A stretch of DNA of 64,000 bases, from positions 15,603-79,602 of the IMG/VR virus record IMGVR_UViG_3300023108_000014. One strand, given 5' to 3'. Numbering within the stretch: the first letter of the stretch is position 1; each line of letters begins with the position of its first letter. This stretch comes from a virus. A program made the translations under genes and the position numbers. This document shows positions 14,902 through 58,124 of this stretch, piece by piece. The notes under the pieces were generated by a model that saw only the letters and a list, made by a program, of their open reading frames with translations, did no database searches and was not told where the DNA came from.

Positions 14902-16029
14902 ATGAGCGTTTTTGACACAACTAACCGTGCCGACCATACACAGGTTCTAGCATTTTTAGATCCTACAGGCGGCCCAACTATTCAACGGTACGACACGTTG
15001 AAGTATAAACAATTTGATAATCTTACAGATAAACAGTTGGGTTTCTTTTGGCGTCCGGAAGAAGTTGATATCTATAAAGATGCAAAAGACTTCAAAGGCT
15101 TGACTGACTTTGAACAGCATATCTTTACTTCAAATCTAAAACGCCAAATTCTATTAGACTCAGTACAAGGGAGAGCACCAGTAGAAGCATTTGCTCCGAT
15201 TGTATCCTTACCGGAGTTAGAAAACTGGATCCAAACATGGACCTTTTCAGAAACTATTCACTCACGTTCATATACACATATCATCCGTAATGTTTACAGC
15301 AATCCAAGTAAGATTTTTGATGAATTAATGAACATCGAAGAGATTGTTGATTGCGCCGGCGACATTTCAAAGTATTATGATGAACTGATTGAAACAAGTA
15401 TGTATTACAACTTGTTGGGTGAAGGCACACATACAGTAAATGGTAAAAAGGTTGTGGTAGATCTTTACGAATTAAAGAAAAGTTTGTGGCTTACATTGAT
15501 GAGCGTGAACATCCTTGAAGGTGTGCGTTTCTATGTATCATTTGCATGTAGTTGGGCATTTGCTGAACTTAAGAAGATGGAAGGCAATGCCAAGATCATT
15601 AAACTAATCGCACGTGATGAGAACCTGCACCTAGCAAGCACACAAATGTTGTTAAAGATCCTTAAAAAAGATGATCCTGACTTTGCTAAAATTGCAGAAG
15701 AAACAGAAGAAGAATGCATTCAGATGTTTGTAGACGCAGTTGATCAAGAAAAAGCATGGGCAGAATATTTGTTTAAAGATGGTTCAATGATTGGACTTAA
15801 CACACAACTACTAAGCGACTACATTGAATTTATTTGCACACGCAGAATGACAAACGTTGCGTTGAAGTCACCTTACACAATTAAAACAAACCCGCTACCT
15901 TGGACACAGAAGTGGATTAGTGGTGCAGACGTTCAAGTTGCTCCACAAGAAACAGAAATCACAAGTTACATCAACGGTGGTACAAAACAAGATGTAACAG
16001 AAGATACATTCAAAGGATTTTCGCTATGA
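14902..16029 (+). CDS. nrdB: Class Ia ribonucleotide reductase beta subunit
   Basis: FFWRPEEVD, ETIHSRSY, EGVRFYVSF, RDENLH and VAPQETEITSY. Confidence 0.97.
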   Translation: MSVFDTTNRADHTQVLAFLDPTGGPTIQRYDTLKYKQFDNLTDKQLGFFWRPEEVDIYKDAKDFKGLTDFEQHIFTSNLKRQILLDSVQGRAPVEAFAPIVSLPELENWIQTWTFSETIHSRSYTHIIRNVYSNPSKIFDELMNIEEIVDCAGDISKYYDELIETSMYYNLLGEGTHTVNGKKVVVDLYELKKSLWLTLMSVNILEGVRFYVSFACSWAFAELKKMEGNAKIIKLIARDENLHLASTQMLLKILKKDDPDFAKIAEETEEECIQMFVDAVDQEKAWAEYLFKDGSMIGLNTQLLSDYIEFICTRRMTNVALKSPYTIKTNPLPWTQKWISGADVQVAPQETEITSYINGGTKQDVTEDTFKGFSL

Positions 16030-49961: not shown

Positions 49962-50181
49962 ACAACTTGCAGATCTAGCGCAAGAAGCAGAATCTATGGA
50001 TCCTATAGATTGGCAAGAATTTAATACTACAAAAGAATTTGTTTACAGACTAATGGCTAGTGCTGTTATTGAGCAAATTGAAGCACAAAAAGATGATCAA
50101 AAAATGTTCATCGCAATGGCAAGTTTGACTAAATTATTAGTAGAGAACTTTGTGTTAAATGCACGGCTAAAAACTAAATGA
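49939..50181 (+). CDS. Hypothetical protein
   Basis: Coupled ORF. Confidence 0.6.
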   Translation: MQKKITIEQLADLAQEAESMDPIDWQEFNTTKEFVYRLMASAVIEQIEAQKDDQKMFIAMASLTKLLVENFVLNARLKTK

Positions 50182-51383
50182 ATCAATCTTTTTGTCCCTT
50201 ACCATTTATTGAATATTGCAACACAACAGCAAATAGGCTGAAATTGTGTTGTGAATCATATGATATAGGAGACAAAGAATATGACAGCATTACAGAAGAC
50301 TTTGAAAAGAATTCTATTTTAAATGAAGTAAGACGAAAAATGCTCGCTGGTGAGCGGGTAGAGTTTTGTTCAAATTGTTATGATTGGGAAGACAGCGGCA
50401 GTGATAGTCCTAGAAAAGATAGGTTACGAGAAACAAATCCTATACTGTTGCAAAAGGCAATGAAAGGACAAATCGAACTTACATCTTTAGATTTAAAGTT
50501 TGGTAATGTATGCAATCTTGCTTGTACTATGTGTGAGGCTACTAATAGCAGTCTTATAAGCGATCACTTAAAAAAAGATCCCGGCAATGATCTTAAAAAA
50601 TTTGATACTATAGACAGTAAACCGTTATATCATAAATTTGAAATGTCTGCACTAGATGAACTTGATTTCTCTAAAATTACTAGAGTAAAGAGCACTGGCG
50701 GCGAACCAATGTTGCAAGAAGGATTTCATCAATTTGTAGACAAACTAGACGAGAATTGTGCGTTGAGAATGGTAACAAATGGAACTATTGACTTAGTGCC
50801 ATATTGGAATAAGTTTTCTTCTATCAAACAGGTTAATCTAAATTTTAGTGTAGAAGGAATACACGAAACATATCATTACAACAGATGGCCAAGTAAGTTT
50901 AGTAAAATTGAACGTAATATCAGAAAGATATTAGAAAAGAAAAAGCAGGAAAAAAATACAAGCGTTAATCTAATTATTGCAACAGCAGTAGGAATTATTA
51001 CATTTAGTGAAACGCATAAATTAATGCAATGGATAATAGATTTAAATAAAGAATTTGCGTTTAACGATATGCCAATTATAGAATTAGATCTTAATTTAAT
51101 AAGAGATCCATTGCATAGTGTTCCTGCACTTGCTCCTAAAGAATCTATACAAATAGCAGTAGAGGAAATGCAAAATCTTAAGGGCGTTGACAATTTAGCA
51201 TTTCCTAACATTGATGATTTTATTAAAGTTATACAAAGACAGTCAGATAATATTCATCCTAAAGAAAAACAAAAAGGCTTGCGACAACTTAAAAGTGCGT
51301 GTGCTTGGTGGTCACGTAATAGAAATTTAGATTATTTTTCTTTGCCAATTATTCAAAAAACACTTGACCAACTTGAAGAATGA
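50178..51383 (+). CDS. Radical SAM protein with N-terminal twitch-like domain
   Basis: FCPLPF...CC...CSNC; CNLACTMC; TGGEPML; VTNGT. Confidence 0.88.
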   Translation: MNQSFCPLPFIEYCNTTANRLKLCCESYDIGDKEYDSITEDFEKNSILNEVRRKMLAGERVEFCSNCYDWEDSGSDSPRKDRLRETNPILLQKAMKGQIELTSLDLKFGNVCNLACTMCEATNSSLISDHLKKDPGNDLKKFDTIDSKPLYHKFEMSALDELDFSKITRVKSTGGEPMLQEGFHQFVDKLDENCALRMVTNGTIDLVPYWNKFSSIKQVNLNFSVEGIHETYHYNRWPSKFSKIERNIRKILEKKKQEKNTSVNLIIATAVGIITFSETHKLMQWIIDLNKEFAFNDMPIIELDLNLIRDPLHSVPALAPKESIQIAVEEMQNLKGVDNLAFPNIDDFIKVIQRQSDNIHPKEKQKGLRQLKSACAWWSRNRNLDYFSLPIIQKTLDQLEE

Positions 51384-52471: not shown

Positions 52472-52781
52472 TGACCATATTGCAAAACTTTTTGCTAAAA
52501 ATATCAACATGATGGTGCCTTGGTATCTTATGGCATCATACGCATACTATGAACAAGATGATGCTATTTTCTCAGATGCGTTTTTTGATGAAATGGGTAA
52601 AACTATGTTAGCCTGTTGGGATGATATCAAACACTTTCACAAAGAGTATATCACAAAAGGCGATTTAGAAGCAGGCACTTTCCTAGGAAAATATCCAAGT
52701 CGTGTTGAAGGTGCTTTAAAAAGTGTAAGAGAAACATATTACACCAAAAGTGGTTCAGTCAGAAAAAATATTAAAATTTAG
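52464..52781 (+). CDS. Stand-alone NAD-dependent DNA ligase domain Ia-like protein
   Basis: SYAYYEQDDAIFSDAFFD. Confidence 0.6.
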   Translation: MLDDHIAKLFAKNINMMVPWYLMASYAYYEQDDAIFSDAFFDEMGKTMLACWDDIKHFHKEYITKGDLEAGTFLGKYPSRVEGALKSVRETYYTKSGSVRKNIKI

Positions 52782-52838
52782 GTTGACTAGATCAATAAAC
52801 CAGTGTATAAATAATCATAGACAGGTAAGGAGAATACT

Positions 52839-53348
52839 ATGAAACGTCTACTAGCAAGTGTTGTATTTTGTGCTGTTGCTACTCCTGTACTAGCAGAACA
52901 AACACCGTTGGCTACTATTACAAGCGTAACACCCAACTACACAACACAAGTTATTCGCAATCCATATCAAAAATGCAACATTGTTGATGTACCAGTTTAT
53001 GGGCAAATCAACAATGGTGGTGGAGCAAATGCAGGTGATGTACTAGGTGGCATGATTATCGGAGGCATCTTAGGTAAAGGTGTTTCGGGTAATGATAAAG
53101 GTGCAGCCGCAGGTGCAGTACTAGGTGGTATGATTGCTGCTGATAACAAAAACAACAGTCAACAAGGCATTGTAGGTTATCGACAAGAACAGCGTTGTGA
53201 AACATATTATAACGAAGAACGTGTTAATACTCTTAAGAATTACACAATTCGTTATGAATGGAATGGTGTAAAAGGAAAGAGTTTTACCTACAATCAATAT
53301 AACGTAGGCGATCGAATTCCTATCTCCGTTAGCATTAACGCAATGTAG
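52839..53348 (+). CDS. Glycine-zipper 2TM secreted protein
   Basis: Signal peptide; GMIIGGILG...GAAAGAVLGG. Confidence 0.75.
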   Translation: MKRLLASVVFCAVATPVLAEQTPLATITSVTPNYTTQVIRNPYQKCNIVDVPVYGQINNGGGANAGDVLGGMIIGGILGKGVSGNDKGAAAGAVLGGMIAADNKNNSQQGIVGYRQEQRCETYYNEERVNTLKNYTIRYEWNGVKGKSFTYNQYNVGDRIPISVSINAM

Positions 53349-53353
53349 TAAAT

Positions 53354-53441
53354 GGTCGGGGGGCAGGATGGTAATGCAGCAGATTGCTAATCTGTACAAC
53401 CTGAAAGGGTTGACTGGGTTCGATTCCCAGTCCGACCGCCA
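53354..53441 (+). tRNA. tRNA-Ser(GCT)
   Basis: GGTCGGG/TCCGACC acceptor, GCAGA-TTGCTAA-TCTGT, long V-arm, TTCGATT, G73-CCA. Confidence 0.93.
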
Positions 53442-53465
53442 CTACTAAATGATAATTAGTTTAAT

Positions 53466-53541
53466 GCTCCTATAGCTCAGTTGGTAGAGCAATTGATTTG
53501 TAATCAATAGGTCCGCGGTTCAAGTCCGTGTGGGAGCACCA
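53466..53541 (+). tRNA. tRNA-Thr(TGT)
   Basis: Canonical cloverleaf; ATTGA-TTTGTAA-TCAAT; CCA encoded. Confidence 0.95.
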
Positions 53542-53557
53542 TATAAAGGAAAGATAA

Positions 53558-53839
53558 ATGGATTTAAGAGACACACTATTAAATGCGTTCCGTAATCATG
53601 CACAGGGTCATATTGATAAACACGTTGCTAACGTAGAAGTTTATCTTGCTAATCCTGCCGGTATCGGTGAGCATTCTGATATTATTGAAGCAATGGAAAT
53701 CGAAGTAGAAGCAATTGCAAAGTACATGGATCAAATTGATGTAATTGAGCGTTGGTTCCCACTACCAGAATGGGAAGTGCATCATGATGAAGACCATGAT
53801 GACGACGATGACGACCACGACGATCACGACGACGATTAA
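53558..53839 (+). CDS. Small phage protein with His/Asp-rich tail
   Basis: NVEVYL.NPAGIGEH core; C-terminal HHDEDHDDDDDDHDDHDDD. Confidence 0.75.
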   Translation: MDLRDTLLNAFRNHAQGHIDKHVANVEVYLANPAGIGEHSDIIEAMEIEVEAIAKYMDQIDVIERWFPLPEWEVHHDEDHDDDDDDHDDHDDD

Positions 53840-53845
53840 AAAATA

Positions 53846-53930
53846 GCGCATGTGGTGAAATTGGTAGACACGCTAGATTTAGGTTCTAGTTCCGCGAGGA
53901 GTGGGGGTTCAAGTCCCTCCATGCGCACCA
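53846..53930 (+). tRNA. tRNA-Leu(TAG)
   Basis: GCGCATG/CATGCGC, CTAGA-TTTAGGT-TCTAG, V-arm, CCA. Confidence 0.95.
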
Positions 53931-53936
53931 TACAAT

Positions 53937-54671
53937 ATGTATAGACATAACGAACAGCGTACAGAACAATATAGCAATAACTTTACGGATGACAAGGTTT
54001 ACAAAAAACTGTTGCCTGACTGTAAAGTTATTTTTGATATCGGCGCTAACTTTGGTCAAAGTATTAAAAAGTTTAAATCAATTTGGCCTGACTGCGTTAT
54101 TCACGCTTTCGAACCTTTACCGGAATGTCAAAAGACACTGAAAGAACTGTCCGATCAGTATCACGATGTTCATATACATGAAATGGCTGTTGGAGCAGTA
54201 TGTGATTACAAACAGTTTTACAAACCCGAAGTGCAAATTGCACTAACTAGCATATATAGAATTAATCCTAACAGCAAAGATAGTTTAGCAATTAATGCTC
54301 CTGACCTTGCTGGCGTAACTAGTGAAGAATATTTAAAAGGTATAAACAATACTTTTTCAGCAAATGTTACCACACTAGACGATTTTTGTAAGAAGAATAG
54401 TATAGTTCCTGATTTTGTAAAAATGGATATACAAGGTAGTGAAAGTGCTGTTCTTGCAGGTGCTATAAACACACTACCTAGTGTGCGTATGTTACAGATG
54501 GAAGTTATGTTATATGATCTATACGAACACAAAACTTCTTTCTTTGATATTGAAAAATATACAAGGAGCGATTTTGAACTTTACGATATTTTTCATATTG
54601 CAAAAAATCCTATGAACGGGCGTACAGATTGGATTGATGTAATTTATAAAAATATTAAAAAAAGTGGTTGA
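53937..54671 (+). CDS. FkbM-family methyltransferase
   Basis: FDIGANFG, AFEP, TLDDF, KMDIQGSE; start moved out of tRNA-Leu to ATG 53937. Confidence 0.88.
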   Translation: MYRHNEQRTEQYSNNFTDDKVYKKLLPDCKVIFDIGANFGQSIKKFKSIWPDCVIHAFEPLPECQKTLKELSDQYHDVHIHEMAVGAVCDYKQFYKPEVQIALTSIYRINPNSKDSLAINAPDLAGVTSEEYLKGINNTFSANVTTLDDFCKKNSIVPDFVKMDIQGSESAVLAGAINTLPSVRMLQMEVMLYDLYEHKTSFFDIEKYTRSDFELYDIFHIAKNPMNGRTDWIDVIYKNIKKSG

Positions 54672-54698
54672 CACTTATAAATAACAATGTTATAAATA
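54668..54698 (+). promoter_or_regulatory. Composite sigma70/late promoter of leader-tRNA operon
   Basis: TTGACA-N17-TATAAA with TG; -10 within TATAAATA. Confidence 0.75.
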
Positions 54699-54724
54699 AT
54701 TTATTAAAAAGAAAGAGTAGATAC

Positions 54725-54784
54725 ATGATCAAGACTAACAAAATATGTATAATATATTGGCCACCTAAAGGGGGTATGTCTTGA
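54725..54784 (+). CDS. Putative attenuator leader peptide MIKTNKICIIYWPPKGGMS (19 aa)
   Basis: GAAAGAG RBS; codons ATA-TGT-ATA-ATA-TAT-TGG-CCA-CCT; 3' end overlaps the antiterminator. Confidence 0.65.
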   Translation: MIKTNKICIIYWPPKGGMS

Positions 54785-54811
54785 CGTGACTTTTTAAAAA
54801 GTTATTTCAAC

Positions 54812-54846
54812 AGCCCCTAGCACTAATAATGTTAGGGGCTTTTTTT
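54812..54846 (+). terminator. Intrinsic terminator (attenuator), mutually exclusive with antiterminator 54769-54818
   Basis: AGCCCCTAGCA-ctaataa-TGTTAGGGGCT plus T6. Confidence 0.85.
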
Positions 54847-54848
54847 AT

Positions 54849-54924
54849 GACTACACTACGCCTTACTGCAATAAGGTGTCTTTGCAGGGACAGAGACCTC
54901 GAAAGGGTCAAAGATAGTGTAGTT
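54849..54924 (+). ncRNA. Unidentified structured RNA (multi-stem, kissing-loop candidate)
   Basis: Closing stem GACTACACTA/TAGTGTAGTT; CGCCTTA-CTGCAA-TAAGGTG; TTGCAG complementary to that loop; GNRA hairpin. Confidence 0.6.
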
Positions 54925-54938
54925 TTAAAAAAAGTTAT

Positions 54939-55023
54939 GCCGGTGCGGTACAGTAGGAGAGGTACGCTGGTCTCCAAAACCAGTTCCTAGGATTAGCGAG
55001 TTCGAATCTCGCCACCGGTGCCA
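54939..55023 (+). tRNA. tRNA-Trp(CCA), atypical (12-nt variable region)
   Basis: GCCGGTG/CACCGGT, CTGGT-CTCCAAA-ACCAG, GCGAG-TTCGAAT-CTCGC, G73-CCA. Confidence 0.85.
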
Positions 55024-55039
55024 AACAAAAAGGAACATT

Positions 55040-55207
55040 ATGCGCAGAGGAAATAAACCTGAAGCAGAAGATTATATAAAGGTAAGGTTAGAGTTTCTTC
55101 ACGAAGAAAAGAAAAAGAACGATAACGAAACTGCTCATCTAGTATTAGATAAAGCAATTTATGAATTAAGTATTGTTCTTGATCTTTTGACAAGAAACGG
55201 GGATTAG
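55040..55207 (+). CDS. Small hypothetical protein (55 aa) between tRNAs, not in ORF track
   Basis: AAGGA RBS; MRRGNKPEAEDYIKVRLEFL...; stop lies in the 5' end of tRNA-Pro. Confidence 0.5.
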   Translation: MRRGNKPEAEDYIKVRLEFLHEEKKKNDNETAHLVLDKAIYELSIVLDLLTRNGD

Positions 55208-55275
55208 GAAAGTCTGGTTAATCCGTCTGCTTTGGGAGCAGAAGATCGCAAGTTCGAATCTTGCATCCCCGACCA
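55198..55275 (+). tRNA. tRNA-Pro(TGG)
   Basis: CGGGGAT/ATCCCCG, TCTGC-TTTGGGA-GCAGA, CCA. Confidence 0.93.
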
Positions 55276-55280
55276 AATAT

Positions 55281-55374
55281 AGTCCCGTAGTTTAGCGGTA
55301 AAACACCTGGCTTATATCCAGCATCGTCTCCAGATTAGAGAGCGTCCCCGGTTCGAATCCGGGCGGGACTACCA
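55281..55374 (+). tRNA. tRNA-Ile(TAT) with long variable arm
   Basis: AGTCCCG/CGGGACT, CTGG-CTTATAT-CCAG, ~24-nt V region, CCCGG-TTCGAAT-CCGGG, A73-CCA. Confidence 0.82.
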
Positions 55375-55395
55375 ACTAAAAAAAATAATTACAAT

Positions 55396-56472
55396 ATGTT
55401 CGAAACTGCTCACGTAGAAATAACTAGTAGGTGTAATGCACAGTGTCCAGGATGTGCAAGAGTAGACGAAGATGATTTTACTCTACAACCTATTCTTAAA
55501 GAAAACAAACTAGACTGGACACTGGAAGACTTCAAAAGAATTTTTCCTCCGCATCTTGTTCAAGACAAGAAGTTTCAATTTGGTGTCGTTGTAGACGAAC
55601 CGTTCATGAATCCTAATTTAGCAGACATTGTAGAGTACGCATTACGTAGTGGTGCAGAAGAAGTTTATATCTATACAAATGGTGGAGCAGGTACAAGTCT
55701 TGTTTGGGAACGAATTGCTGCTATGAGCAAACGATTTTATCCTAAATTGTTTGTAGAGTTTAGTATAGATGGCCACAAGGAAACAAATCATATCTATAGA
55801 AGATTTGTTAAATGGAAAAACGTACAACGCAATATTAATTTATATTGCACTATTGCTAGACATGACGGCAAGGTAAATGGACGTTGGGTTTATCTAGTAT
55901 TTGACCACAACGAAAAGGATATTAAGAACGCAGAAGCATTTGCTGAAACACTAGGTATTGATTTCCTGATTAGAGCAAACACAAGAAACACAGACTCTTG
56001 GTTTGTTGATGATGAAAAAGATTCTTACGAAGTAAAACCGACTACAAATGAAAACTTTCAACACAGTCAATTAGAAGAAAAACGTAAGTTTGACAAAAAG
56101 CCTAAGACAAATTTATCATTAGAAGATATAGAAAGTATAGGTTGTTATCATTTTCACGAAAAAGAAATTTTTGTAGATTGGAATCAAAATGTATTTCCAT
56201 GCTGTTGGTGGGGTTCATCTTACTACTACGATGGCAAAGACAAGAAAGAAAAAATTTATAAACCTATTGAAGATAAGTACGGTAGCAATTGGTGCTCTTT
56301 GAAATACAATAGCCTTGAAGAAATTCTACAAGGGTTTTACAAAGAAGATCTTGCAAAAGGTTGGAGTACAACTAGCGAATTTAATCACGGCGAAATGTGT
56401 TTTAAAAAGTGCGGCGATTGTGGTATTAGACAAAAATATGAATGGTTTGATTCAGATGGAAACAGTATATAA
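55396..56472 (+). CDS. Radical SAM/SPASM-like protein
   Basis: CNAQCPGC, EPFMNP, YTNGG, FSIDG, VFPCC, CFKKC. Confidence 0.88.
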   Translation: MFETAHVEITSRCNAQCPGCARVDEDDFTLQPILKENKLDWTLEDFKRIFPPHLVQDKKFQFGVVVDEPFMNPNLADIVEYALRSGAEEVYIYTNGGAGTSLVWERIAAMSKRFYPKLFVEFSIDGHKETNHIYRRFVKWKNVQRNINLYCTIARHDGKVNGRWVYLVFDHNEKDIKNAEAFAETLGIDFLIRANTRNTDSWFVDDEKDSYEVKPTTNENFQHSQLEEKRKFDKKPKTNLSLEDIESIGCYHFHEKEIFVDWNQNVFPCCWWGSSYYYDGKDKKEKIYKPIEDKYGSNWCSLKYNSLEEILQGFYKEDLAKGWSTTSEFNHGEMCFKKCGDCGIRQKYEWFDSDGNSI

Positions 56473-56631
56473 ATGTTTACAGTAGTAAAAGAAATTATTT
56501 GGCATTTAACATGTAATAATTGTAAAGGCTGGTTCACTTACGCAACAATGGAAAAAATGTGCATCGATCGATATACATTTCATTGCCCGCATTGTGGACA
56601 AAAAGCTGGATGTACATTACAGGATAAGTAA
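56473..56631 (+). CDS. Small zinc-ribbon protein, not in ORF track
   Basis: MFTVVKEIIWHLTCNNCKGW...FHCPHCGQK. Confidence 0.55.
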   Translation: MFTVVKEIIWHLTCNNCKGWFTYATMEKMCIDRYTFHCPHCGQKAGCTLQDK

Positions 56632-56861
56632 TGCCGCAAAAAATTAAAACCATTAGGGCTCGCACTGGCGTGTTGGAGCGGGAAAACATATCCGTAGAAA
56701 TTCGAGTAAACAGACGTAAGAAAAAATGTAGATTTAGATTCTGGCAAGATCAAGAATTTTTAAAACAATATGATTATAATTTGCAGGAAGCAAATCATCA
56801 ATATAATGAAATGGTTAGAAACGGGTATTGTGTTGTAAAAACTGAACCTGAAACCATTTAA
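56631..56861 (+). CDS. Hypothetical protein
   Basis: TAATG-coupled ORF. Confidence 0.55.
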   Translation: MPQKIKTIRARTGVLERENISVEIRVNRRKKKCRFRFWQDQEFLKQYDYNLQEANHQYNEMVRNGYCVVKTEPETI

Positions 56862-56863
56862 GG

Positions 56864-56892
56864 TTGACAAACTACTGTGTAGAATATATATT
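56864..56892 (+). promoter_or_regulatory. Sigma70-type promoter
   Basis: TTGACA-N17-TATATT. Confidence 0.65.
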
Positions 56893-56921
56893 ATGAATAA
56901 GTTAAACAGGAGGGTATAGAT

Positions 56922-58124
56922 ATGGCACTACCTAAGCGTACAAAAAAGAAAACAGTTCGTGCTCGTCGCAGAGGCAGCGAATGGGATAACATGCCAACAA
57001 AGACATGGCATGGAGCACATTATTATGTGCATTATGAAATTGAATCTAAAAGTTGGGGCAATAAATGTCGAGAATGGTTCAAAGCAAATCTTGACAAGAA
57101 AACTATTGCAAAAATTAACAAACTGCCAAACTGGAAAGTAGATGGTAAGAGTCACTATGCACTAGCAGCACATTGTGAAATGCATCATCCTGAATTAATT
57201 CACACGTCTTATGTCGGTGCTATGCAGCGTTGGGCAGAAAAACTTGCTGCTGAAGGTGAGTTAGTTGTAGAAGAAAAGAAAACAGAAGAAAAGAAAAAAG
57301 ACGTATATGTTCCTACAATCCAAGAACGTATTACAGAACAGTCTTGGAATCTTGCTGAAGATATTGACGAATGGCTTGAAGGCTTTGTGTCAGATAAAGA
57401 TAATTTTGATCCTAAAGGATTTGATTTCAAGCAACATTTTGCTGGCAAAAAAATTACACAAGCACATGCACGTAAGATGAAAACGTTTTTTGCAAACGAA
57501 CTTGCAGACTTTGATGAATTGGAGCGTATGCCAACAGCAGGTCAACTTAAAAAAATGGACGAGACTGAAGCAGATCAATGGGCTCAACTCAAGGAAGGTT
57601 ATAGTCATCTTAAAAAGAGCGATATCAAAAAGTATCGAGAGGCTATCGGTAATTTGATGACTGCACTAGATTTTATTATCGACAGTGCTAAAGCAACACG
57701 CAAACCACGTAAGCCAAAAGTTTACTCAGCAGACAAACTTGTAAGCAAACTTAAATTCTGTGTCACAGATGAGAAGTTTAAACTTGCTAGTATTTCTCCT
57801 ACAGAAATTATTGGTGCAAACGAACTTTGGGTGTTTAACAGAAAAACTCGCAAGATTGGCAAATATATTGCCGCCAACCCTGATCCGACAGGCATGGGTA
57901 GAGACGGTAGTGGGTTACAAGTAAAAGGTACTACAGTTACAGGCTTTAAAGAAAATGAAAGCATACAAAAGACACTTCGTAAGCCTGAAGAGCAACTCAA
58001 AGAGTTTAAGGCAGCAGGCAAAGTTAAATTACGAAAGTATCTTGATGAAATCAAAACAACTGATACAAAACTAAATGGACGTATCAATCCTGACACAATT
58101 TTATTAAAGGTTGTCACAAAATGA
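56922..58124 (+). CDS. Conserved hypothetical phage protein (basic)
   Basis: 400-aa ORF with AGGAGG RBS; VKGTT, KTLRKPEEQL, LNGRIN. Confidence 0.8.
   Translation: MALPKRTKKKTVRARRRGSEWDNMPTKTWHGAHYYVHYEIESKSWGNKCREWFKANLDKKTIAKINKLPNWKVDGKSHYALAAHCEMHHPELIHTSYVGAMQRWAEKLAAEGELVVEEKKTEEKKKDVYVPTIQERITEQSWNLAEDIDEWLEGFVSDKDNFDPKGFDFKQHFAGKKITQAHARKMKTFFANELADFDELERMPTAGQLKKMDETEADQWAQLKEGYSHLKKSDIKKYREAIGNLMTALDFIIDSAKATRKPRKPKVYSADKLVSKLKFCVTDEKFKLASISPTEIIGANELWVFNRKTRKIGKYIAANPDPTGMGRDGSGLQVKGTTVTGFKENESIQKTLRKPEEQLKEFKAAGKVKLRKYLDEIKTTDTKLNGRINPDTILLKVVTK

Follow-up and report, generated by a model that had tools for sequence, protein, structure and literature searches.

A candidate leader-peptide attenuator ahead of a viral tRNA operon, with leader codons that track the downstream anticodons

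The DNA analysed here, referred to as the window, is a 64,000-nt stretch of a viral contig (IMG/VR record IMGVR_UViG_3300023108_000014, positions 15,603 to 79,602), in which a short leader element lies directly upstream of genes for tRNA-Trp(CCA), tRNA-Pro(UGG) and a tRNA with the anticodon UAU. We read this element as a ribosome-mediated (leader-peptide) transcription attenuator that gates the phage tRNA operon, and put the probability of this reading at roughly 0.65. Leader-peptide attenuation is a textbook mechanism, and a preliminary description made from the letters of the window had already proposed it for this locus; the comparative and folding evidence presented below supports that interpretation. 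The anatomy of the element, its conservation, the covariation in its stems and the matching of its leader codons to the anticodons of the downstream genes were all established computationally.

The element starts with a sigma-70-type promoter (54668–54696; all features given here are on the + strand), in which TTGACA (54668–54673) and TATAAA (54691–54696) are separated by a 17-nt spacer. It was not listed by a simple scanner because the final base of its −10 box is A; among 101 aligned homologues the −35 box hardly varies, and neither of the two leading bases of the −10 box varies at all. A ribosome-binding site AGAGU (54714–54718), which is degenerate compared with the family consensus AAGGAAU found 5–8 nt ahead of the start, precedes a leader open reading frame (ORF) of 19 codons (54725–54784, encoding MIKTNKICIIYWPPKGGMS), and an ORF is kept in 179 of the 185 matches that make up the family. 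AUA codons are located at 54743, 54749 and 54752, the Trp codon UGG at 54758–54760 and the Pro codons CCA CCU at 54761–54766. The stretch AUA UGU AUA AUA UAU UGG (54743–54760) is the candidate sensing window, as judged from codon–anticodon matching at positions W-8 to W-1 relative to the Trp codon (W). The 3′ end of the leader, with its GGGG run and the stop codon (54782–54784), falls into region 2 (54770–54788, GGGGGUAUGUCUUGA plus CGUG), as delimited by folding and covariation. Further downstream lies an intrinsic terminator (54812–54847) with an 11-bp stem (54812–54840), a 7-nt loop and seven Us (54841–54847), whose stem shows compensatory changes among relatives; no other terminator-like site is present within 53000–57000. 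The first gene that would be regulated is tRNA-Trp(CCA) (54939–55023), which has an unusually long variable region, and it is followed by tRNA-Pro(UGG) (55198–55275) and a 94-nt tRNA with the anticodon UAU, which reads AUA, and a long variable arm (55281–55374); all three were identified by tRNA prediction and Rfam tRNA matches. On re-inspection the coordinates of the promoter, leader ORF, terminator and tRNA genes in the preliminary description, as well as its codon counts, were all correct, and of its "11-bp terminator plus T6" the stem stands, whereas the T-tract has seven Ts.

About 180 homologous copies, with 92 distinct leaders, retain the full layout of promoter, ribosome-binding site, ORF, stop codon within the structure and terminator, so that the arrangement first noticed in a single sequence exceeds chance. 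The 195 nt at 54654–54848 recur with 72–92% identity just 5′ of tRNA-Trp in otherwise unrelated viral contigs, so that the element moves with the tRNA cluster and not with the FkbM-type methyltransferase gene whose 3′ end (54671) is located just ahead of it. In two contigs (L089 and L078) a tRNA-Leu gene sits directly 5′ of the element. The first relatives were recovered by anchoring on the anticodon arm of tRNA-Trp followed by BLAST comparison, and the family was then gathered mainly with a pattern that includes the GGGG run and the stop region. A 23-nt motif taken from where the ORF ends was then located at 57 loci in viral and at least 119 in metagenome sequences, without exception of marine or estuarine origin, and a profile search added seven further divergent copies. 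A loose hairpin pattern returned mostly random matches, from which nhmmer still drew six divergent copies, and one candidate (L182) was dropped as a chance match within a methyltransferase gene. Flanking proteins used as search anchors yielded no useful relatives, the flanks not being conserved. No match to the element was found by blastn among 50,697 records of cultured phages, none by the motif scan of 185,579 prokaryote genomes (one per species), and megablast with 24 kb matched only a tRNA-Thr. Moreover, the Rfam Trp_leader family (RF00513) gave no match at E≤1 across 52500–56500, where only the tRNAs were matched, and since its covariance model does not match, the element is an analogue and not a homologue of Trp_leader. 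A Spot_42 match in Rfam (21 bits, E=0.85) was dismissed as noise.

The leader ORF behaves as a coding sequence. Its length ranges from 18 to 22 codons in the 92 distinct leaders, the five length classes are all in frame, and the insertions and deletions consist of whole codons only. Every leader starts with ATG or GTG, with AAGGAAU 5–8 nt ahead of it, and synonymous variation is found between ACA and ACU, among CCA, CCG and CCU, and between UGU and UGC. Six of the 185 matches lack a counted ORF: three are truncated where their contigs end, two carry an intact ORF that did not pass the Shine–Dalgarno filter, and the last is L291, the only frameshifted copy in about 180. Considering the in-frame length classes, the synonymous variation and the rarity of frameshifts, we infer that the leader is translated; the conservation of the leader had been proposed as a test of the attenuator, and the ORF, its ribosome-binding site and the position of its stop codon are indeed kept throughout. 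In L291 (2656–2860) an additional G in the GGGG run shifts the frame and moves its end 6 nt downstream; the copy is a natural frameshift variant unless the extra base is a sequencing error.

The 3′ end of the leader appears to be under a different kind of constraint. The leaders fall into two families, M-x-K-T-N-T-T-Y-I-T-C-W-P-P-x-G-G-M-S and V-L-R-T-V-Q-Q-S-S-L-Q-N-W-C-P-P-K-G-R-G-M-S, which have almost no residues in common except T4, W, P and the C-terminal G-M-S. The wobble bases of the C-terminal residues are fixed, the conservation extends beyond the stop codon, and the codon before GGU always has GG as its last two bases with any of the four letters as its first (giving G, R or W), which points to constraint on the RNA and not on the peptide. 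The GG is also invariant in most of the copies found via the tRNA or the hairpin, for which GGGG was not required (e.g. L180 and L371); in L097, the most divergent copy, the motif is altered to GAGGGC. A Trp codon is present in every distinct peptide, 13, 16 or 19 nt ahead of the GGGG run.

Three competing RNA structures can be drawn for the element, which is strongly structured as a whole (z = −4.0). They were assessed by folding each sequence and by counting the pairs of each named structure in the alignment (101 sequences aligned, 98 homologues folded). The first, here called P1, was overlooked by the preliminary description and buries the start codon: in the full-length minimum-energy fold CAUG-A-UCAAGAC (54724–54735), comprising the start codon and codons 2–4, is paired with GUCUUGA-CGUG (54778–54788). 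The pair between the first base of the start codon and 54787 is A-U in 66 and G-C in 35 of the aligned sequences and is never unpaired, and a C at 54787 disrupts a pair of the inner hairpin yet preserves that of P1. The start and stop codons are likewise coupled, ATG with TGA in 59 leaders and GTG with TAA in 32 without any mixed case, which would fit pairing of the middle base of the stop codon with a C or U in codons 2–3. Folding of the P1 domain leaves no base of the start codon unpaired in any of the 98 homologues. The second structure is the antiterminator, a 20-bp interrupted hairpin (54770–54818, −19.0 kcal/mol) in which GGGGGU, UGU and UGA pair with UCA, ACA and GCCCCU around an inner hairpin. 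Its 5′ strand (54770–54784) is part of region 2, whose remaining role is that of the P1 3′ strand (54778–54788); its tip is the 8-bp A/U-rich hairpin GUGACUUU-UUAA-AAAGUUAU (54786–54805), and its 3′ strand is region 3 (UCAACAGCCCCU, 54807–54818), which overlaps the 5′ arm of the terminator, the third structure. The antiterminator is exactly the minimum-energy fold of the RNA ending before the terminator 3′ arm, and it is the same pairing that had been proposed by eye; in the same comparison the terminator reaches −18.2 kcal/mol. In the alignment 90% of its cells are paired, against 39–70% when the partner strand is slid, and in the homologues the CCCC of the terminator 5′ arm pairs with the leader GGGG with a probability of 0.93–0.99.

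Compensatory changes in the stems, which had also been put forward as a test, are present in the terminator and in P1, while the antiterminator displays little covariation because GGGG and CCCC are invariant; L097 provides a compensatory change there, with GAGGGC/GCCCUC instead of AGGGGU/GCCCCU. In the terminator one pair is CG in 53 and UA in 33 sequences, and the next is AU in 50, CG in 6 and GC in 4. For P1 and the terminator combined, 100 cells have both sides changed versus 32±4 in shuffled alignments. The mean stabilities over the homologues are −19.8 kcal/mol for the P1 domain, −19.8 for the antiterminator and −16.6 for the terminator, and in the full-length RNA of the window the terminator configuration (−26.3 kcal/mol) compares with −23.5 kcal/mol for the antiterminator configuration. 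Such balanced alternative folds are what a switch would need. By folding, the three structures are mutually exclusive, with P1 as an equivalent of the 1:2 pairing, that is, the upstream competitor of the antiterminator. The C-run of the Pro codons was considered as a partner of GGGG as well, and it was set aside in favour of P1 since its equilibrium probability is only 0.06.

The influence of a ribosome on these structures was modelled by removing the RNA to 12 nt beyond the A-site codon and folding the nascent remainder in the 98 homologues. With the A site at any codon up to W, pairing of CCCC with the leader GGGG has a probability of 0.98–0.99, which declines to 0.77 at W+1, 0.45 at W+2 and 0.17 at W+3, and is 0 from W+4 to the stop codon. 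According to this model a ribosome that finishes the leader would release the 5′ arm of the terminator, and one held at or before the Trp codon would not. The geometry given in the preliminary description, in which stalls at Ile and Trp codons permit the antiterminator and stalls at the Pro codons begin to cover it, is reproduced by the same calculation.

The leader codons also correspond to the tRNA genes that follow them, which was analysed in the 75 distinct leaders with complete tRNA arrays. In these leaders 239 codons are cognate to the non-Trp tRNAs of the leader's own array, compared with 164±8 when the arrays are permuted and 189±6 when they are permuted within leader families (p<2e-4). 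Two or more AUA codons are associated with a UAU or CAU tRNA ([[11,3],[1,60]], p=8.5e-10), and the association holds with UAU tRNAs only (p=1.5e-6); CAU tRNAs were counted as possible AUA readers of the tRNA-Ile2 type by hypothesis. The matches for Gln, Ser (UCN), Cys, Tyr and Gly are each significant too. Furthermore, some of the matches involve amino acid replacements: Y-I-T is replaced by x-I-I (AUA AUA) in leaders followed by a UAU or CAU tRNA, C-W by Y-W in those for which tRNA-Cys gives way to tRNA-Tyr, and the sole leader with F beside the matching stretch precedes the sole tRNA-Phe (L to F). As a control for kinship, a tree was built from the promoter, the 3′ structure and tRNA-Trp, with the leader body excluded, and independent pairs differing in a tRNA were compared. 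The pairs changing in the same and the opposite direction number 3.4 and 0 for AUA readers, 2.4 and 0 for Gln, 3.6 and 0.2 for Ser, 2.1 and 0.1 for Cys, 1 and 0 for Tyr, and 3 and 0 for Gly, or about 15.5 versus 0.3 when pooled. The co-variation of leader codons with downstream anticodons, which the preliminary description had named as a check to be made across related phages, is thus found. Matching peaks at W-8 to W-1 (z 3–7.6, highest at W-3 and W-2), is absent at codons 2–4 and is weak beyond W+2, and this range coincides with the stall positions predicted by the footprint model to keep the antiterminator. With regard to the AUA (Ile) sensing emphasised at first, the association is real but lineage-specific, and only Trp is universal in the family. 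CAU tRNAs, which ARAGORN labels as Met, occur only behind leaders with AUA AUA (e.g. L307, L246, L226 and L261), and they may be lysidine-type tRNA-Ile2 rather than tRNA-Met.

The position of the tRNA-Trp gene is equally constant. Among 148 distinct contexts, 137 have it at the head of the downstream tRNA genes, and the others are accounted for by contig ends, a tRNA-Trp gene missed by ARAGORN, an inserted tRNA-Cys gene or small ORF, and one broken contig; tRNA-Trp being first was thus confirmed in essentially every copy, as was the Trp codon in the leaders. The gap between U-tract and tRNA-Trp is shorter than 10 nt in 80 of 154 copies and shorter than 30 nt in 114, too short for a second promoter, so read-through of the terminator is the only route by which tRNA-Trp can be transcribed in most relatives. 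For an independent promoter downstream of 54846, which had been named as an observation that would speak against attenuation, these gaps leave no space in most copies of the family. In the window itself the gap measures 92 nt and contains a structured RNA and no promoter-like site. The arrays consist of tRNA-Trp alone or of tRNA-Trp together with Pro(UGG), Cys(GCA), Ser(UGA), Gln(UUG), Ile(UAU), CAU, Tyr(GUA), Gly(UCC) and other tRNAs; that of the window comprises the Trp, Pro and AUA-reading tRNAs, with tRNA-Cys and tRNA-Tyr absent.

Taking these results together, the following mechanism can be proposed. A promoter of constitutive type would produce a leader RNA of about 140 nt with three mutually exclusive folds. 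When the 19 codons are translated fast, the ribosome would cover GGGG, the terminator could form, and transcription would stop before tRNA-Trp; the modelled CCCC–GGGG pairing of 0 from W+4 onwards is the reason to expect that completed translation frees the terminator 5′ arm. When the ribosome is held up at the Trp codon or at any of the eight or so codons ahead of it, GGGG would remain free, the antiterminator would form first, and RNA polymerase would read into tRNA-Trp, tRNA-Pro and the UAU tRNA. If the leader is not translated at all, P1 would form first and termination would be favoured. Read-through is therefore expected from the model to change with ribosome stalling, and the phage probably makes its Trp, Pro and Ile(UAU) tRNAs only when ribosomes read the corresponding leader codons slowly. 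Because the sensed codons are decoded by the very tRNAs produced, the circuit would act as a negative-feedback gauge of charged-tRNA supply. Trp sensing appears to be its universal core, and sensing at AUA, Cys, Tyr, Gln, Ser and Gly codons appears tuned to the array of each phage. A broader proposal, to which we give slightly less than an even chance, is that lineages rewrite the approximately eight codons before the fixed Trp codon to match their own tRNA genes, and that the leader is a ribosomal gauge able to evolve, reading the pool of charged tRNAs through several channels. On this proposal the phage would turn on its tRNA supply only in the case of a shortage of host tRNAs, a poor fit of these to its codon usage, or their cleavage by anticodon nucleases of the host.

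Several observations weigh against the attenuator as outlined. Pro codons occur in nearly all leaders and show no association with tRNA-Pro in the 75 leaders examined, and the independent-pair tests for single traits are underpowered (p 0.125–1), with significance reached only after pooling. The covariation in P1 and the coupling of start and stop codons may reflect only two or three evolutionary events, the key GGGG:CCCC helix of the antiterminator cannot show covariation at all, and the invariance of GGGG and the stop-region bases is partly built into the search pattern. Equilibrium folding without a ribosome favours the antiterminator (P=0.93); termination of untranslated transcripts, like that in the trp operon, would follow from the order of folding, because P1 is transcribed about 30 nt ahead of the antiterminator and the two cannot coexist. 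In addition, the ribosome-binding site in the window is weak, and there is no terminator 3′ of the tRNA genes, so protein genes beyond them may be under the control of the attenuator too.

These points bear differently on the other explanations of the element. The absent Pro association, the single-trait tests that are individually non-significant, W as the sole universal codon and a predicted fold that is identical for any stall before W+2 would all be accommodated if the attenuator sensed only Trp, or only whether translation runs, and if the tuning of other codons were inherited co-occurrence. We regard this as rather unlikely, since the matching persists within leader families, is about 15 to 0 in the pooled sister pairs, extends beyond synonymous drift to the T to I, C to Y and L to F replacements, and is restricted to W-8 to W-1. 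It is also conceivable that the element is a self-contained gene for a micropeptide, closed by an ordinary terminator, and that the tRNAs derive from constitutive leak or an upstream transcript. The conserved ORF with its ribosome-binding site and the conserved T4, W, P and C-terminal GMS would agree with a functional peptide, and a salt-marsh metatranscriptome contig begins 47 nt upstream of the −35 box, as an upstream transcript might. Three contigs of this kind (three runs, depth about 3–6) also extend from within or ahead of the terminator across the U-tract into tRNA-Trp; they cannot show RNA ends and may stem from DNA carry-over, and were given no weight. Such a gene is quite improbable, because the fixed wobble bases and the conservation beyond the stop codon point to the RNA, the start and stop codons co-vary as pairing partners, the rest of the peptide is almost wholly different between the two leader families, and neither the codon–anticodon matching nor the strict adjacency to tRNA-Trp would be explained.

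An element whose ORF is incidental has to be considered as well, namely a non-coding small RNA or an element for processing or stability of the tRNA cluster. The T4 tRNA region carries stable RNAs without an assigned function, and the position of the element within tRNA clusters, in two cases directly after tRNA-Leu, its strong structure and its terminator hairpin end, which resembles that of small RNAs, would suit such a role. Insertions and deletions that are in frame only, a well-spaced ribosome-binding site, the constant ATG or GTG and the synonymous variation all speak for a translated leader, and no Rfam family matched beyond the weak Spot_42 hit; we consider a non-coding element very improbable.

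As a leader-peptide attenuator, the phage element has all the structural defining features of its class, represented by E. coli trpL and by the leaders of his, leu, phe, thr, ilvGMEDA and pheST. A promoter-proximal short ORF with codons for the commodity, three overlapping pairings (anti-antiterminator, antiterminator and terminator) and a stop codon within region 2 are shared, and the same logic, in which a stalled ribosome favours read-through, is predicted. The ilv and thr attenuators sense several amino acids, and the phage element appears to do alike. In contrast to the class, it would regulate tRNAs and not biosynthetic enzymes or synthetases, so that the product acts directly on the sensor codon; its first pairing buries the start codon and there is no sequence similarity. 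Unlike trpL, it is encoded by a phage and has a single Trp codon, not a run. Within an incomplete coverage of the literature, published leader-peptide attenuation was found only for amino-acid and aminoacyl-tRNA-synthetase genes, and no description of attenuation or demand-sensing control of tRNA transcription was found for either phages or cells.

Among published examples of tRNA genes regulated by demand, the trn operon of Anabaena sp. PCC 7120 comes closest (PMC8421152, PMC10272220). It is an accessory tRNA array that is silent until translation is impaired, and its repressor, TrcR, targets direct repeats in the promoter. Those two papers make no mention of a leader peptide, attenuation or a terminator. 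The trn operon resembles the proposed phage circuit in the regulation of tRNA genes by demand, but it is cellular and repressor-controlled. The question of why phages carry tRNAs, with codon compensation and counter-defence as the answers considered, is the subject of PMC10264068, and the arrays concerned are, like those behind the phage element, carried by phages and presumed to make up for host tRNAs that are scarce or cleaved. If our reading is true, the same attenuation logic is applied in a virus to the tRNA genes themselves, with sensor codons tuned to the products. It would then answer directly how and when phages express tRNA arrays and would support on-demand rather than constitutive production of phage tRNAs. 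Moreover, a small and portable part of about 180 nt would become available for reporting how fast chosen codons are decoded. With its sigma-70 promoter and standard ribosome-binding site, the element should lend itself to tests in E. coli or cell-free systems.

Other features of the operon lie between and around the tRNA genes. The structured RNA between terminator and tRNA-Trp (54849–54924, 76 nt) is predicted to form a four-way junction with a 10-bp closing stem and three hairpins (−25.6 kcal/mol, z = −2.6); it is not shared by the whole family, and neither a tRNA nor an Rfam assignment was obtained for it. Inserts longer than about 30 nt occur at this position in about 40 of 154 copies, and the 24 distinct inserts longer than 60 nt that were listed are of three types with a common closing stem and differing interiors, L204 being the sole exception. 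The tRNA-Trp (54939–55023) has G1.U72 and G73. Its variable region is about 12 nt long and that of the UAU tRNA about 23 nt, both unusual lengths among tRNAs for Trp and Ile, and copies of the 94-nt UAU tRNA with 90–96% identity are found in many unrelated viral contigs. Inside the operon, between tRNA-Trp and tRNA-Pro, an ORF of 55 codons (55040–55207) is preceded by AAGGA, a good ribosome-binding site, and overlaps the first 10 nt of tRNA-Pro; it had no match in PHROG.

The parent contig is 79.6 kb long with a completeness rating of 27%. Its ribonucleotide reductase has its nearest relatives (56–62% identity) in jumbo myoviruses of Gammaproteobacteria, which weakly suggests that the window derives from a large marine phage with a proteobacterial host. 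Two T4-late-like TATAAATA motifs overlap the promoter of the leader element (54676–54683 and 54691–54698), and TATAAATA or GATAAATAA, likewise of T4-late type, is kept within the spacer of the sigma-70-type promoter in many relatives (alignment columns ~36–46); early and late promoters may therefore overlap at this operon. Genes for two radical-SAM proteins are located on either side of the tRNA region (50178–51383 and 55396–56472). The latter begins 21 nt after the UAU tRNA, and because no terminator separates the two, it may also be controlled by the attenuator.

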